A stretch of 64,000 nt of DNA, from the IMG/VR virus record IMGVR_UViG_3300042914_002678; one strand, given 5' to 3'. The notes under the pieces were generated by a model that saw only the letters and a program-made list of their open reading frames with translations, had not been told where the DNA came from and did no database searches. The position numbers were made by a program, and so were the translations under genes. The stretch is from a virus. Taxonomy: Duplodnaviria > Caudoviricetes. Positions 49,640 to 60,821 of the stretch are shown one piece after another (the stretch's first letter is position 1; every line of letters starts with the position of its first letter).

Positions 49640-50584
49640 ATGACAAGTGAATTTCTTTTTGTGGAGAAGTATCGTCCTCAAGTAATTGATGATTGTATCC
49701 TCCCCGATGAAACTAAAAAAACATTTAAGGAGTTTGTAGAGAAGGGAGAGATTCCAAATCTTCTTCTTGCTGGACCTCCTGGTATTGGTAAGACTACCAT
49801 TGCAAAAGCACTGTGTACTGAATTGGGGGCAGATTATTATGTCATCAACGGATCCGACGAAGGGCGTTTCCTGGATACTGTACGAAACCAAGCAAAGAAC
49901 TTCGCTTCGACCGTCTCACTTACGGGATCTTCTAAACACAAAGTCATCATCATCGATGAGGCAGATAACACAGGCAACGACGTACAACTCCTACTACGGG
50001 CGAATATTGAGGCATTTTATAACAACTGCCGATTCATCTTTACCTGTAATTACAAAAATAAAATCATTGAACCCCTTCATTCTCGATGTGCAGTCATTGA
50101 CTTTACAATCAAGGGGAAGCAGAGGGTACAACTTGCAGGAAATTTCTTCCAAAGGTTGCAATTTATCCTTAATCAAGAAAAGATTGAGTATGATCAAAAA
50201 GTCGTTGCGGAACTTGTATCCAAACACTTTCCCGACTTTCGGCGGGTTTTGAATGAAATTCAGAGGTATTCTACTGGTGGAAAGATTGACTCTGGAATTC
50301 TTGCATCTTTCTCTGACGTATCTGTAAATGAACTTGTTAAAAATCTTAAGGATAAAAACTTTCCTGAAGTCCGAAAGTGGGTGGTCGGGAACTTGGACAA
50401 TGATGCTTCTCATCTACTTCGCAGGGTTTATGACGCCACTTATGATTGCCTTGTTCCCGCATCTATCCCTGCTGCCGTTCTTGTTATTGCTAAGTATCAA
50501 TACCAATGTGCGTTCGTTGCTGACCAAGAAATAAATCTTCTTGCTGCCCTTACTGAACTTATGGTGGAGTGTGAATTCAAATGA
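49640..50584 (+). CDS. gp44: Clamp loader large subunit gp44
   Basis: VEKYRP, GPPGIGKT, IIDEAD, SRC and YQCAFVADQEIN motifs. Confidence 0.97.
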   Translation: MTSEFLFVEKYRPQVIDDCILPDETKKTFKEFVEKGEIPNLLLAGPPGIGKTTIAKALCTELGADYYVINGSDEGRFLDTVRNQAKNFASTVSLTGSSKHKVIIIDEADNTGNDVQLLLRANIEAFYNNCRFIFTCNYKNKIIEPLHSRCAVIDFTIKGKQRVQLAGNFFQRLQFILNQEKIEYDQKVVAELVSKHFPDFRRVLNEIQRYSTGGKIDSGILASFSDVSVNELVKNLKDKNFPEVRKWVVGNLDNDASHLLRRVYDATYDCLVPASIPAAVLVIAKYQYQCAFVADQEINLLAALTELMVECEFK

Positions 50585-50778
50585 ATAAAGAACATCAAGT
50601 AAAAGCAAAGTGGTATTACATTTTCTGGGGTGCTATGGCAGTTGCTGTAGTTGGTGGACAGATTTATGTTGGAACTGGATATCGTGAGATGGCAGAAGCA
50701 ACTAAATCAACTGAAATTTCGGTTTCCTGTGTATTACCTTACGAGACATCTAGAAATAGAAGTGGAGAGTTTGAATGA
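50581..50778 (+). CDS. Small protein with one predicted membrane segment
   Basis: Hydrophobic stretch WYYIFWGAMAVAVVGGQIYVG; ATGA overlaps at both ends. Confidence 0.65.
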   Translation: MNKEHQVKAKWYYIFWGAMAVAVVGGQIYVGTGYREMAEATKSTEISVSCVLPYETSRNRSGEFE

Positions 50779-51617
50779 AAGAACTCAAGACTCCCCTGAG
50801 GTATCCTGGTGGTAAATCCCGTGCTTGTGAAAAGATGGGACCTTATTTTCCAGACCTTCGTAATTATGAAGAATTCCGAGAACCATTTCTTGGTGGAGGA
50901 AGTGTTGCGATTTATATCACAAAGAAGTATCCTGGATTAAATATTTGGGTAAATGATTTATATGAACCTCTTGTAAACTTCTGGCAACAACTCCAGATGT
51001 TTGGTACTGATCTTAAAGATAAACTGGTAGATTTAAAGACAGCAAATAATACTCCCGATTTAGCAAGAGAACTTTTTCTTCACTCAAAAGGGCAGATCAA
51101 TGACCAAAGTTTGCCAAGTATTTATCGTGCTGTGGCTTTCTATATTGTCAATAAGTGTAGTTTTAGTGGTCTTACAGAGAGTTCATCATTTTCACCACAG
51201 GCTTCCAATAACAACTTCAGTCTGCGAGGGATCGAAAAGTTGCCTGCGTATTCTACGCTAATAGCAAATTGGCGTATAACTAATTACTCTTACGACTATT
51301 TGTTGGATGGGAATATGGGTGCTTTTGTGTATCTCGATCCTCCTTATGATATTAAGGATAATCTCTATGGGCGTAAAGGATCAATGCACAAAGGATTTGA
51401 TCACGATAAGTTTGCTGTTGATTGTGATTCTTGTTATATGCATCAACTAATAAGTTATAATTCTGATCAACTAGTCAAAGATCGTTTTAAAAAATGGAAG
51501 ACTGGTGAGTTTGATTTGACTTATACAATGCGTTCTGTTGGTGAATATATGCGAGAGCAAAAAGAAAGAAAGGAACTTTTGCTGTTTAATTATGATAAAA
51601 ATTTGTTATGGAACTGA
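50775..51617 (+). CDS. dam: DNA adenine methyltransferase (Dam/D12 family)
   Basis: LRYPGGKS, EPFLGGGSV (SAM-binding), NDL and YLDPPY motifs. Confidence 0.92.
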   Translation: MKELKTPLRYPGGKSRACEKMGPYFPDLRNYEEFREPFLGGGSVAIYITKKYPGLNIWVNDLYEPLVNFWQQLQMFGTDLKDKLVDLKTANNTPDLARELFLHSKGQINDQSLPSIYRAVAFYIVNKCSFSGLTESSSFSPQASNNNFSLRGIEKLPAYSTLIANWRITNYSYDYLLDGNMGAFVYLDPPYDIKDNLYGRKGSMHKGFDHDKFAVDCDSCYMHQLISYNSDQLVKDRFKKWKTGEFDLTYTMRSVGEYMREQKERKELLLFNYDKNLLWN

Positions 51618-51976
51618 AGGACTGGTTGAATTCAATTAACTTTACAAAAGAGGATTTATCTGAAGATATCAAAGACTATCCTCCGTATATTATTAACAAA
51701 TGCTTGTCGGGTAGCATCGATTGCGTTCTCTTTGCAAATGAAATGAATATTAATCATCATATTGACAAAGATATGCAATATTCGTTTTATCTAAATAGTC
51801 TAAGGAAAAAGAAGAGATTTTCTCCCTGGCTCCGAAAAGATAAGGTTACAGACTTAGAATGTATTAAATCATACTATGGTTATAGTAATGAGAAGGCATC
51901 TCAAGCACTGAAAATCTTAACAAAAGAACAACTTACTTTCATTAAAAAACGACTTGATATTGGAGGAACAAAATGA
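51608..51976 (+). CDS. gp62: Clamp loader small subunit gp62
   Basis: YPPYIINKCLS, ANEMN and YYGYSNEKA motifs. Confidence 0.93.
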   Translation: MELKDWLNSINFTKEDLSEDIKDYPPYIINKCLSGSIDCVLFANEMNINHHIDKDMQYSFYLNSLRKKKRFSPWLRKDKVTDLECIKSYYGYSNEKASQALKILTKEQLTFIKKRLDIGGTK

Positions 51977-52410
51977 CTACTACGGTAGAACCTACTGTTG
52001 AATGGTCTCAAGACCAAATGGTAGAGGTAATTCTTAATGAACCTGATGACTTTTTGAAAGTTCGTGAGACTTTAACTCGCATCGGAGTTGCATCACGTAA
52101 GGAGAAAAAACTTTATCAATCCTGCCATATTCTTCACAAGCAGGGTAAGTATTATATCGTTCACTTTAAAGAACTGTTTGCACTTGACGGTAAACATGCA
52201 AACTTAACAGTAAATGATGTCCAAAGACGTAATCGTATCGTTCGTCTTCTTGCTGATTGGGGATTAATTACTGTTGTAAAAGAAGATAAAGTATCTGATA
52301 TTGCTCCACTTAACCAAATTAAAGTTCTTGCCTATAAGGATAAGGGTGATTGGATTCTTGAGCAAAAGTATAACATTGGCAAGAAAGGAAAAGCAGTAGA
52401 GGTAGAATAA
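51973..52410 (+). CDS. regA: Translational repressor RegA
   Basis: DDFLKVRETLTRIG, LYQSCHILHKQG and YYIVHFKELFALDG motifs. Confidence 0.97.
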   Translation: MTTTVEPTVEWSQDQMVEVILNEPDDFLKVRETLTRIGVASRKEKKLYQSCHILHKQGKYYIVHFKELFALDGKHANLTVNDVQRRNRIVRLLADWGLITVVKEDKVSDIAPLNQIKVLAYKDKGDWILEQKYNIGKKGKAVEVE

Positions 52411-52418
52411 ATAATTCT

Positions 52419-52495
52419 GTGCCATTCGTGCGGCACTCTACAAAAGTCGGAACACCCTAAAGAGAAGTTCGGTTTTTACCGTTCTTCTCTTTTCT
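52419..52495 (+). ncRNA. Putative structured RNA between regA and hsp20
   Basis: Follows a late promoter (52407-13). Hairpin GTGCC/GGCAC, linker AAAAGTCGGAACACCC, long hairpin AAAGAGAAG..CGGT-TTTT-ACCG..CTTCTCTTT. Confidence 0.45.
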
Positions 52496-52504
52496 GTTCT
52501 TTGG

Positions 52505-52512
52505 TATAAATA
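52505..52512 (+). promoter_or_regulatory. Late promoter (TATAAATA) for hsp20
   Basis: Perfect consensus about 60 nt upstream of the hsp20 start. Confidence 0.75.
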
Positions 52513-52517
52513 ATAAT

Positions 52518-52570
52518 GGATGCCGAAAGGGTCCACAAAACACAAACTCGCTTTTAAAGGAGCTACTATA
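52518..52570 (+). promoter_or_regulatory. Structured hsp20 5' UTR, ROSE-like RNA thermometer candidate
   Basis: Hairpin GGATGCC-GAAA-GGGTCC, then CTCGCTT pairs with the Shine-Dalgarno AAGGAG leaving a bulged G. Confidence 0.55.
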
Positions 52571-53005
52571 ATGACTAATCTGATGAAGTATCAGGCTGCG
52601 GATCTTCCTGCCTTGCTGGAAAGAATCAACCGCAATACAATTGGACTAGATGAATATTTTGATCGCATCTTTAGTCTTCACGAAACAACTTCTAACTATC
52701 CCCCATACAATCTTGTTCAAGTTAGCAATGTAGAGTCACGACTGGAACTTGCACTTGCTGGATTTAAAAAGAAGGAGGTTTATGTCTATACGCAAGACGG
52801 AAAACTCTTTGTTGAAGGGCAGAAAGAAGATAAAGAAACGCAGTCAAACTATCTTCACAAAGGTCTGGCTCAACGGAGTTTTACACGTTCCTGGACACTC
52901 TCTGATGACACGGAAGTTCGATCAGTTGATTTTGAGGATGGGCTTCTGACAGTGACTCTTGGTAGAATTGTTCCAGAGCATCATAAGCGAAAGGACTATC
53001 TATAA
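52571..53005 (+). CDS. hsp20: Small heat shock protein Hsp20
   Basis: NYPPYN, LALAGF, YLHKGLAQRSFTRSWTL and DGLLTVTL motifs. Start set at 52571 because AAAGGAG lies 8 nt upstream. Confidence 0.95.
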   Translation: MTNLMKYQAADLPALLERINRNTIGLDEYFDRIFSLHETTSNYPPYNLVQVSNVESRLELALAGFKKKEVYVYTQDGKLFVEGQKEDKETQSNYLHKGLAQRSFTRSWTLSDDTEVRSVDFEDGLLTVTLGRIVPEHHKRKDYL

Positions 53006-53029
53006 ATATAACTGAATATCGTCGGCGCT

Positions 53030-53082
53030 GGGAGGCAACTGGCAAAATCCAGTTGACGCCTCCCCTTTTTCTTGCTAAAATA
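53030..53082 (+). promoter_or_regulatory. Terminator-like hairpin overlapping a sigma70-type promoter
   Basis: GGGAGGC-AACTGG...CCAGTT-GAC-GCCTCCC plus T-tract. -35 TTGACG (53053-58) and extended -10 TGnTAAAAT (53074-82). Confidence 0.65.
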
Positions 53083-53102: not shown

Positions 53103-53483
53103 ATGACTATTAAATTGCTGCTTCTCAAATCTGGAGAAGATATCATCGCAAACGTAAATGAAATGGTTGTTGGTGATGAAGAAAACAAAAGAATCGTTGG
53201 ATATTTTCTAGATAGACCTTGTATTGTCAAGATGAGAAGTCCTACGATGATTACTGAAGAAGTTGGAGAGGGTGTACAGAGAACAGGATTTGAAGTGTCC
53301 TTGTTTCCTTGGATGCCACTGTCCAAAGATGAGAGAATCCCAATCCCCGCAGATTGGATGATTACTATGGTTGAACCAGTTGATAAACTAAAAGAAATGT
53401 ACGTTGAGGACATTACACAAAATGGAAAAGACAATAAAGATACTTCTTCTACTGAACAATCAGATTCTGATATCACAGATTGA
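53103..53483 (+). CDS. Conserved hypothetical protein (Sm-like pattern)
   Basis: IKLLLLKSGEDIIA...LFPWMPLS pattern. Confidence 0.75.
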   Translation: MTIKLLLLKSGEDIIANVNEMVVGDEENKRIVGYFLDRPCIVKMRSPTMITEEVGEGVQRTGFEVSLFPWMPLSKDERIPIPADWMITMVEPVDKLKEMYVEDITQNGKDNKDTSSTEQSDSDITD

Positions 53484-60748: not shown

Positions 60749-60821
60749 GGGGAATTAGCTTAGTTGGTAGAGCGCCTGCTTTGCACGCAGGAGGTCAGGA
60801 GTTCGAGTCTCCTATTCTCCA
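60749..60821 (+). tRNA. tRNA-Ala (anticodon UGC), CCA not encoded
   Basis: Cloverleaf: acceptor GGGGAAT/ATTCTCC with the G3:U70 Ala identity pair, D-loop AGTTGGTA, anticodon stem CCTGC/GCAGG with loop TTTGCAC, T-loop TTCGAGT. Confidence 0.96.

Follow-up and report, generated by a model that had tools for sequence, protein, structure and literature searches.

A candidate ROSE-like RNA thermometer in the hsp20 leader of a T4-like cyanophage and its relatives

The hsp20 gene of a T4-like cyanophage is preceded by a leader of two hairpins, the second of which can pair the Shine-Dalgarno (SD) sequence with an upstream anti-SD strand around a bulged G. We consider it fairly probable that this is a ROSE-like leader through which temperature opens the translation of hsp20; the comparative structure is observed across phages, and the temperature response is argued by analogy with known thermometers. 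By the same analogy, the output of the phage Hsp20 chaperone is probably tuned by temperature. We infer the transcription start site, the occlusion of the SD in vivo and the melting of the stem within the temperature range of the host. The ROSE-like identity had been proposed in an earlier note on this DNA, and is now supported by the defining anatomy of the leader, by an end-to-end alignment to the Rfam family ROSE_3, by covariation, and by the leaders of ibpA in SAR11 bacteria.

Locus and anatomy of the leader

The window, by which we mean the whole 64-kb stretch of DNA that was analyzed, is T4-like cyanophage DNA of freshwater origin, and its sequence is present in lake-water metagenomes. 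The hsp20 locus lies inside a block of replication genes, all on the + strand. Upstream stand a clamp-loader gp44-like ORF (49640-50584), a D12 adenine methyltransferase gene (50775-51617), the gene for the clamp-loader A subunit (51608-51976) and regA (51973-52410), the last immediately before the hsp20 unit; hsp20 itself (52571-53005) is followed by genes for a DUF6561 protein (53103-53483) and for the DNA polymerase (from 53679). The methyltransferase gene, of the D12 class of N6-adenine DNA methyltransferases, is wedged between the gp44-like and gp62-like clamp-loader genes and overlaps its neighbors at the ends.

The product of hsp20 is an IbpA-like (class A) small heat-shock protein of 144 amino acids, assigned to its family by matches to Pfam HSP20 and to PDB 7ck4. 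Its nearest named relative is Hsp20 of Synechococcus phage S-T4 (83% identity). The best NCBIfam matches were IbpA (89.8 bits) and IbpB, both below their equivalog cut-offs, which for the IbpA equivalog NF008013 is 212 bits. By its sequence, the protein is IbpA-like and not an IbpA equivalog. An in-frame ATG at 52520, inside the first hairpin of the leader, lengthens the ORF to 161 amino acids, and the equivalent upstream ATG underlies the long form of hsp20 annotated in the S-SRM01 record. Since this upstream ATG is lost in variants of the leader (GGUUGCC, GAUCGCC, GGACGCC), we place the start at 52571 and not at 52520. In the S-T4 record, the start of the coding sequence is placed 75 nt too far downstream.

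The coordinates of the leader elements in the earlier note proved exact to the base. A T4 late-type promoter box, TATAAATA (52505-52512, + strand), lies 5 nt upstream of the first hairpin, and the ATG of hsp20 occupies 52571-52573; the leader is 53 nt long, matching the earlier estimate of about 53 nt, if transcription starts at G52518. Hairpin I (52518-52534, + strand) reads GGAUGCC-GAAA-GGGUCC and is the GAAA-capped hairpin that had been noticed there. With the leading 52 omitted from the numbering of pairs, it consists of G518-C534, G519-C533, A520-U532, U521-G531, C523-G530 and C524-G529, with G52522 bulged, and it probably forms the 5' end of the mRNA. An A/C-rich, unpaired spacer follows (ACAAAACACAAA, 52535-52546, + strand). 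Next comes hairpin II (52547-52562, + strand), the presumed sensor, in which the anti-SD CUCGCU (52547-52552) faces the SD AGGAG (52558-52562) and G52550 is bulged. The two motifs from which this hairpin had been proposed, CUCGCUU (52547-52553) and AAGGAG (52557-52562), are both in place, and all of the proposed pairs (C547-G562, U548-A561, C549-G560, C551-G559 and U552-A558, with G550 bulged) can form; U553-A557 is an optional further pair. The leader thus has the features of a ROSE element: it is a 5' UTR (52518-52570) directly preceding a small heat-shock gene, UCGCU (52548-52552) pairs with AGGA (52558-52561) in the 3'-proximal hairpin, and G52550 is the bulged G opposite the SD.

A box resembling TAAATA or TATAAT(T) was found in about 197 of the 259 distinct leaders compared below. 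Its 3' end lies 8-11 nt upstream of the bulged G in hairpin I and 4-7 nt upstream of the foot of that stem, a spacing that fits a transcript beginning with the first base of the hairpin. In the remaining 62 leaders, promoter and hairpin I are separated by an extra hairpin. We infer from the sequence that the promoter is used, that it belongs to the late class, and that transcription starts at about 52518. The TATAAATA box is not enriched in the window (6 copies against 5.6 expected), and all six copies lie on the + strand. Bacterial ibpA leaders have a sigma-32 promoter upstream; the window has TATAAATA instead. Contigs of RNA libraries covered small shares only, including parts of hsp20, and came mostly from relatives less than 90% alike. 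One contig piece of 163 nt was identical to the window (52862-53024), and the contigs are uninformative on the transcript start or on transcription.

Terminator-like hairpins lie on both sides of the hsp20 unit. The upstream one, with its U-rich tract (52459-52492, + strand; -17.5 kcal/mol, z -5.96), resembles an intrinsic terminator and, as modeled, would end the regA unit and insulate hsp20; relatives have a G+C-rich hairpin and T-run of other sequence at the matching place. The hairpin after hsp20, followed by UUUUU (53030-53064, + strand; -21.8 kcal/mol, z -2.41), makes hsp20 a monocistronic unit. A second TATAAATA (53001-53008) overlaps the stop codon of hsp20, directly before that hairpin, and a sigma-70-like TTGACG-17-TAAAAT (53053-53081) precedes the next gene.

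In a permissive scan of 501 nt, ROSE_3 (RF02523) aligned to 52514-52576 over model positions 1-69, with 26.8 bits and an E value of 0.0017. The alignment is in register throughout: hairpin I with its bulged G, ACUCGCU/AGGAG around model position G39, and the start AUGACU. As in the two-hairpin architecture of ROSE_3, both hairpins have a bulged G and the AUG lies downstream of the stem. The gathering score of the family (43 bits) was not reached, either by the window or by its relatives, among which Methylophilales phage Melnitz scored best (34.1 bits) and MED4-213 scored 29.2 bits. A scan of the whole window against Rfam at the gathering threshold returned a tRNA gene (60749-60821, 71.8 bits) as its only match and no ROSE element. 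Because the score lies below the Rfam threshold, routine annotation would miss the leader. The numbering of Krajewski et al. for the Pseudomonas thermometers puts G15 and A46 in the loops of hairpins I and II, respectively, the bulge at G39 and the start codon at about position 65 (PMC3669281). The bulged G39, the loops and the AUG of ROSE_3 match this numbering, and we therefore read ROSE_3 as the Pseudomonas short-ROSE family.

Folded as a single sequence, the leader is unremarkable. The minimum free energy of 52518-52573 is -9.8 kcal/mol (z -1.24), not better than chance, and ViennaRNA favors another register of hairpin II here, running from G550-C563 onward and pairing GCUUU with GGAGC. 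Hairpin I on its own is predicted at -4.8 kcal/mol. In the nearest-neighbor model, the energy at 37 °C is -6.5 kcal/mol for hairpin I and only -2.2 kcal/mol for hairpin II, which reaches -4.55 kcal/mol at 20 °C; the values for hairpin II justify the earlier doubt about the stability of so short a stem. The median of the phage family at 37 °C is likewise -2.2 kcal/mol (interquartile range -3.0 to -1.5), the ROSE_3 consensus reaches -7.8 kcal/mol, and the leaders of SAR11 lie at about 0 to -0.6 kcal/mol. With a difference of about 5.6 kcal/mol from the ROSE_3 consensus, repression by hairpin II may be slight, as far as these models go. The modeled accessibility of the hsp20 SD ranked 14th among the 51 SD-like sites in the window, which is not exceptional, and was nearly constant from 15 to 37 °C under nearest-neighbor energies, which cannot model the non-canonical geometry of ROSE stems. 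Given this rank, thermodynamics alone lends no support to a thermometer, and with an unremarkable single-sequence fold the case rests on comparison across relatives.

Conservation and covariation among phage leaders

Loci with hsp20 were gathered by protein homology and not by RNA motif. They comprised 80 close relatives of the window Hsp20, 18 named phages spanning Kyanoviridae, S-TIM5, MED4-213 and Methylophilales phage Melnitz, and further IMG/VR sets seeded with Syn9, S-PM2, S-TIM5, Melnitz and S-CAM4. The total of 347 phage loci, with Hsp20 identity down to about 30%, yielded 259 distinct leaders. A leader with both hairpins was found in all of them (259/259) and at every locus with enough upstream sequence. 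The pattern used to search for the leader fixed the bulged G of hairpin II and left its two outer pairs free.

Covariation across cyanophage hsp20 leaders had been suggested earlier as a check on the structure; both hairpins covary in the 259 distinct leaders. The ROSE register of hairpin II was paired in 98.8-100% of the leaders at its five pairs. Next to the loop, U552-A558 is U-A in 256 leaders and unpaired in 3, and C551-G559 is C-G in all 259. Across the bulge, C549-G560 is C-G in 196 leaders and U-G in 63, so that the anti-SD motif reads UCGCU in 196/259 and UUGCU in 63/259. The two outer pairs show double compensatory changes. At 548-561, U-A (253 leaders) is replaced by A-U in the 4 leaders of the S-TIM5 clade, where CACGCU faces AGGUG, and by U-G in 2. 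At 547-562, C-G (196 leaders) is replaced by G-C in 56, which make up the whole S-CAM4 clade (GUCGCU with AGGAC), by U-G in 5 and by A-U in 1, with a single mismatch. The sole A-U case at this pair (L186) has AUCGCU with AGGAU, and its sister (L184) has CUCGCU with AGGAG. Taken together, 517 of 518 cells at the two outer pairs were paired, whereas 2000 shuffles averaged 420 and never exceeded 441; kinship among the sequences inflates this kind of test, here and below. The compensatory swaps in hairpin II trace to about three independent events. Much of the hairpin is invariant, and translation would conserve the SD in any case, which weakens the covariation case. Between GCU and AGG, the arms enclose a loop of 3-9 nt and of variable sequence; the arms themselves are fixed. 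The alternative register favored by ViennaRNA was kept in only 40, 78, 98, 96 and 40% of the leaders at its five pairs, and was therefore rejected as a conserved structure.

Hairpin I is separated from hairpin II by a spacer of 9-12 nt in most leaders. Its motif of four pairs, a bulged G, two pairs and a loop occurs in 259/259 leaders, against about 25/259 in shuffles, and it covaries at four of its six pairs. Pair 520-532 is A-U in 175 leaders, U-A in 65, G-C in 6 and C-G in 4; pair 519-533 is G-C in 176, A-U in 44 and U-A in 30; and pair 518-534 is G-C in 161, A-U in 47 and U-A in 43. The loops swap among stable tetraloop classes (UUCG 95, GAAA 36, UAAC 23, GUAA 17).

Pairing was also counted in two alignments. 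In the first (A5), restricted to leaders with a loop length of 6 and ungapped in hairpin II, 92.2% of the cells were paired against 82.3% after shuffling (0/500 shuffles as high) and 38-68% in slid controls; hairpin II alone reached 99.2%. The second (A6) comprised held-out leaders with other loop lengths and the window. It was aligned by a covariance model built from relatives of the leader (R1) and is thus fitted to that model; here, 97.8% of the cells were paired against 90.0% after shuffling and 46-67% in slid controls, and 9 of 12 pairs had changed on both sides. Two MAFFT alignments (A1 and A4) shifted the SD between columns and were excluded from the pair counts in favor of A5 and A6.

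When R1 was run over the 64-kb window, it returned a single match, at 52518-52562 (43.3 bits, E about 2e-14). Likewise, the window has 12 AGGAG..ATG sites, and an upstream anti-SD with a bulged G is present at hsp20 only.

Some leaders depart from the common plan. In S-T4 (L081), S-CAM9 (L083), S-PM2 (L092), one further locus (L094) and part of the S-CAM4 clade (L268-L347), a third hairpin lies between the promoter box and hairpin I; these three-hairpin leaders recall classical ROSE elements. Throughout the S-CAM4 clade, the SD-like AGGAC stands 0-1 nt from the ATG, too close for normal SD spacing, and the base of the stem touches the start codon.

Proposed mechanism and alternative explanations

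Herein, we describe how a ROSE-like leader would act in this phage. The hsp20 mRNA probably begins at about G52518, from the late-type TATAAATA promoter (52505-52512). The stable hairpin I at its 5' end would aid folding and protect the mRNA end, to judge by its Pseudomonas counterpart. The weak hairpin II, with its six pairs interrupted by G52550, would hold the SD AGGAG against the anti-SD CUCGCU, and the ribosome-binding site would be mostly closed at low temperature. Upon warming, hairpin II would open and the 30S subunit would bind, giving more Hsp20 from an unchanged amount of mRNA. Gene and leader would both belong to the ibpA type of proteobacteria and would have been passed on as a single cassette, with the sigma-32 promoter swapped for a phage promoter. 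Counting against a thermometer, marine and freshwater picocyanobacteria depend less on SD pairing than proteobacteria do. Krajewski et al. (2013) showed for the Pseudomonas ibpA thermometers that warming from 25 to 42 °C opens hairpin II and leaves hairpin I intact, and that the delta-G39/U38C variant stays locked (PMC3669281).

An alternative that we hold to be unlikely is that the leader, inherited with the gene, is a constitutive attenuator and mRNA stabilizer with no temperature response within the host range. Hairpin I would then protect the 5' end, and hairpin II would set a low and fixed rate of translation. Such a role accords with the very weak hairpin II (median -2.2 kcal/mol at 37 °C), with a modeled SD accessibility that hardly moves with temperature, and with the stabilizing role that Krajewski et al. 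proposed for the 5'-terminal hairpin I in Pseudomonas (PMC3669281). However, the bulged G and the U(U/C)GCU motif, which tune melting in tested ROSE elements and would be needless in an attenuator, are kept in 259/259 leaders. The weak stem would moreover suit hosts living at 5-30 °C, a point against the constitutive reading, although on modeled energies weak constitutive attenuation would be suited equally well.

The leader may instead be mainly an operator at which phage Hsp20 represses its own synthesis until clients titrate the chaperone. The signal would then be protein-folding load, e.g., capsid assembly, rather than temperature. This proposal, which is drawn by analogy and compatible with a thermometer, seems to us distinctly unlikely as the main role of the leader. 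In its favor, the phage protein is IbpA-like, and its GLAQRSF motif contains Arg102, a residue that shows no variation among 8 diverse phage Hsp20s; we take Arg102 to be the equivalent of Arg93 in E. coli IbpA. In E. coli, Cedecea and Vibrio, free IbpA represses translation by binding to the 5' UTR of its own mRNA, and unfolded clients titrate it; this self-repression needs Arg93, which is absent from IbpB (PMC10474464). The phage resembles that system in having an IbpA-type protein with a candidate critical arginine beside a ROSE-type leader. On the other hand, K98 of IbpA is not conserved, being Ser107 in the Hsp20 of this phage, and self-repression is shown for gammaproteobacterial IbpA only (PMC10474464).

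The thermometer and self-repression could also be combined. Warmth would open the leader, and free phage Hsp20, keeping the leader-binding arginine of IbpA, would close it. If so, the late promoter and this gate would together provide a self-adjusting supply of chaperone during capsid assembly, the shortened stem would be an adaptation to lake and ocean temperatures of 5-30 °C, and phages with hosts as unrelated as cyanobacteria, SAR11 and OM43 would have come to share the cassette by its spread. As one joint claim about the gate, the late chaperone supply, the shortened stem and the spread of the cassette, this combination is tentative and on the whole doubtful.

Other readings of the conserved sequence fare worse. 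We rejected the view that RegA, the translational repressor of the phage, has its binding site in the conserved leader. This view is very improbable even though regA is the upstream neighbor here (51973-52410) and in many cyanophages, because the leader also precedes hsp20 without a regA neighbor in Syn9, S-SM1, P-SSM4, S-TIM5 and Melnitz, and precedes ibpA in SAR11 bacteria, without RegA; the covariation, too, indicates RNA pairing over a sequence-specific operator. Hardly credible is the reading of the conserved AAACTCGCTTAAATA-type sequence as a DNA Pho box for host PhoB. It goes back to S-PM2d, where ATTCAAACTCGCTTAAATA upstream of hsp20 is listed as a putative Pho box, and was rejected since the S-PM2d fragment did not bind PhoB and the gene was unresponsive to low phosphate (PMC10976474). 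Compensatory changes with the SD again favor RNA pairing, and the ROSE reading explains why ATTCAAACTCGCTTAAATA, the anti-SD region of S-PM2d hsp20, is conserved. Chance complementarity beside an ordinary SD, with which the non-significant single-sequence z-scores would agree, has next to no probability in view of the conservation, the covariation and the sole R1 match in the window.

A ROSE-like thermometer at this locus would matter beyond the single phage. T4-like cyanophages account for a large part of the mortality of picocyanobacteria in oceans and lakes. The hsp20 gene is one of 25 genes common to all T4-like cyanophages (PMC3037559). If the thermometer reading is true, viral protein output would be coupled directly to water temperature without a host regulator, it would bear on how the outcome of infection shifts with warming, and viruses would gain their first described thermometer of the ROSE type. 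The phage leaders also offer a series of natural, very short variants for low temperature, on which the tuning of such sensors could be studied. Standard annotation misses the leader. The anti-SD of S-PM2 had been taken for a Pho box.

Origin of the leader and comparison with known systems

Maaroufi and Tanguay (2013) found that cyanophage small heat-shock proteins group with bacterial class A and not with those of cyanobacteria, and proposed lateral acquisition; leaders and promoters were not discussed (PMC3827213). Our search of species-representative bacterial genomes gave two kinds of match, namely a few contigs resembling mis-binned phage DNA and ibpA of Pelagibacterales (SAR11). The former (L348-L351) are filed as Acidibacter, Psychromonas, a 5.16-Mb 'Thermoplasmata archaeon chromosome' and Actinomycetota. 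They have a cyanophage-type hsp20 (70-82% identical) with phage leader and promoter, and probably entered these assemblies as phage DNA through wrong binning or joining.

In SAR11 (L355-L362), ibpA has a matching two-hairpin leader with a UUGCU anti-SD, behind CTTGAAA...CCCATATA-like boxes that resemble sigma-32 promoters. The phage-derived R1 scored these leaders at 17-34 bits. They share with the phage leaders the two hairpins, a low G+C content and a weak hairpin II, whereas they are bacterial, stand behind a sigma-32-like promoter and precede genes for proteins 36-42% identical to phage Hsp20. We found no description of ROSE-like leaders of SAR11 ibpA, which are apparently undescribed. Since the phage protein is IbpA-like, gene and leader are likely one cassette; they probably travelled together, with the promoter replaced by the phage late-type TATAAATA. 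Joint transfer, in whichever direction, with an exchange of promoters would be the simplest reading of the sequences.

Temperature-sensitive RNA structure has a precedent among phages in the cIII mRNA switch of phage lambda, on which the translation of that phage mRNA depends. Unlike the hsp20 leader, lambda cIII has two alternative structures and an unrelated sequence, and it serves the lysis-lysogeny decision and not a chaperone. A literature search on cyanophages or phages together with RNA thermometers or ROSE found no phage ROSE element described, in keeping with the earlier note, which knew of no characterized one, and RNA structures of phages that respond to temperature figure as speculation in a 2024 review.

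Within the phylum of the host, the hsp17 thermometer of Synechocystis is likewise a short, weak hairpin gating a small heat-shock gene. As far as the account cited in PMC3669281 goes, it differs from the phage leader in being a single hairpin without ROSE motif or bulged G, and in preceding a gene of another small heat-shock protein class. The phage leader is not host-derived. With the classical ROSE elements of Bradyrhizobium and other rhizobia and of ibpA in E. coli and Salmonella, it has in common the U(U/C)GCU anti-SD, the bulged G and the small heat-shock gene. Classical elements, in contrast, have three to four hairpins, longer and G+C-rich sensor stems and an AUG that is partly paired. 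R1 fails to recognize the G+C-rich ROSE leaders of alphaproteobacteria (L364-L368).

Compared with ROSE_3, hairpin II of the phage has six pairs and lacks the flanking G-C clamps (-2.2 vs. -7.8 kcal/mol at 37 °C), and compared with Pseudomonas ibpA, the leader resides in a virus, behind a late-type promoter rather than a sigma-32 promoter. In other respects, it is built like the short ROSE of Pseudomonas. Both have two hairpins, the first of them with a bulged G and near-identical in sequence (GAUGCC...GGGUC), then an unpaired spacer, and then a short hairpin II in which UCGCU pairs with AGGA(G) around a bulged G. In both, the AUG lies outside the stem and an IbpA-type gene follows downstream.
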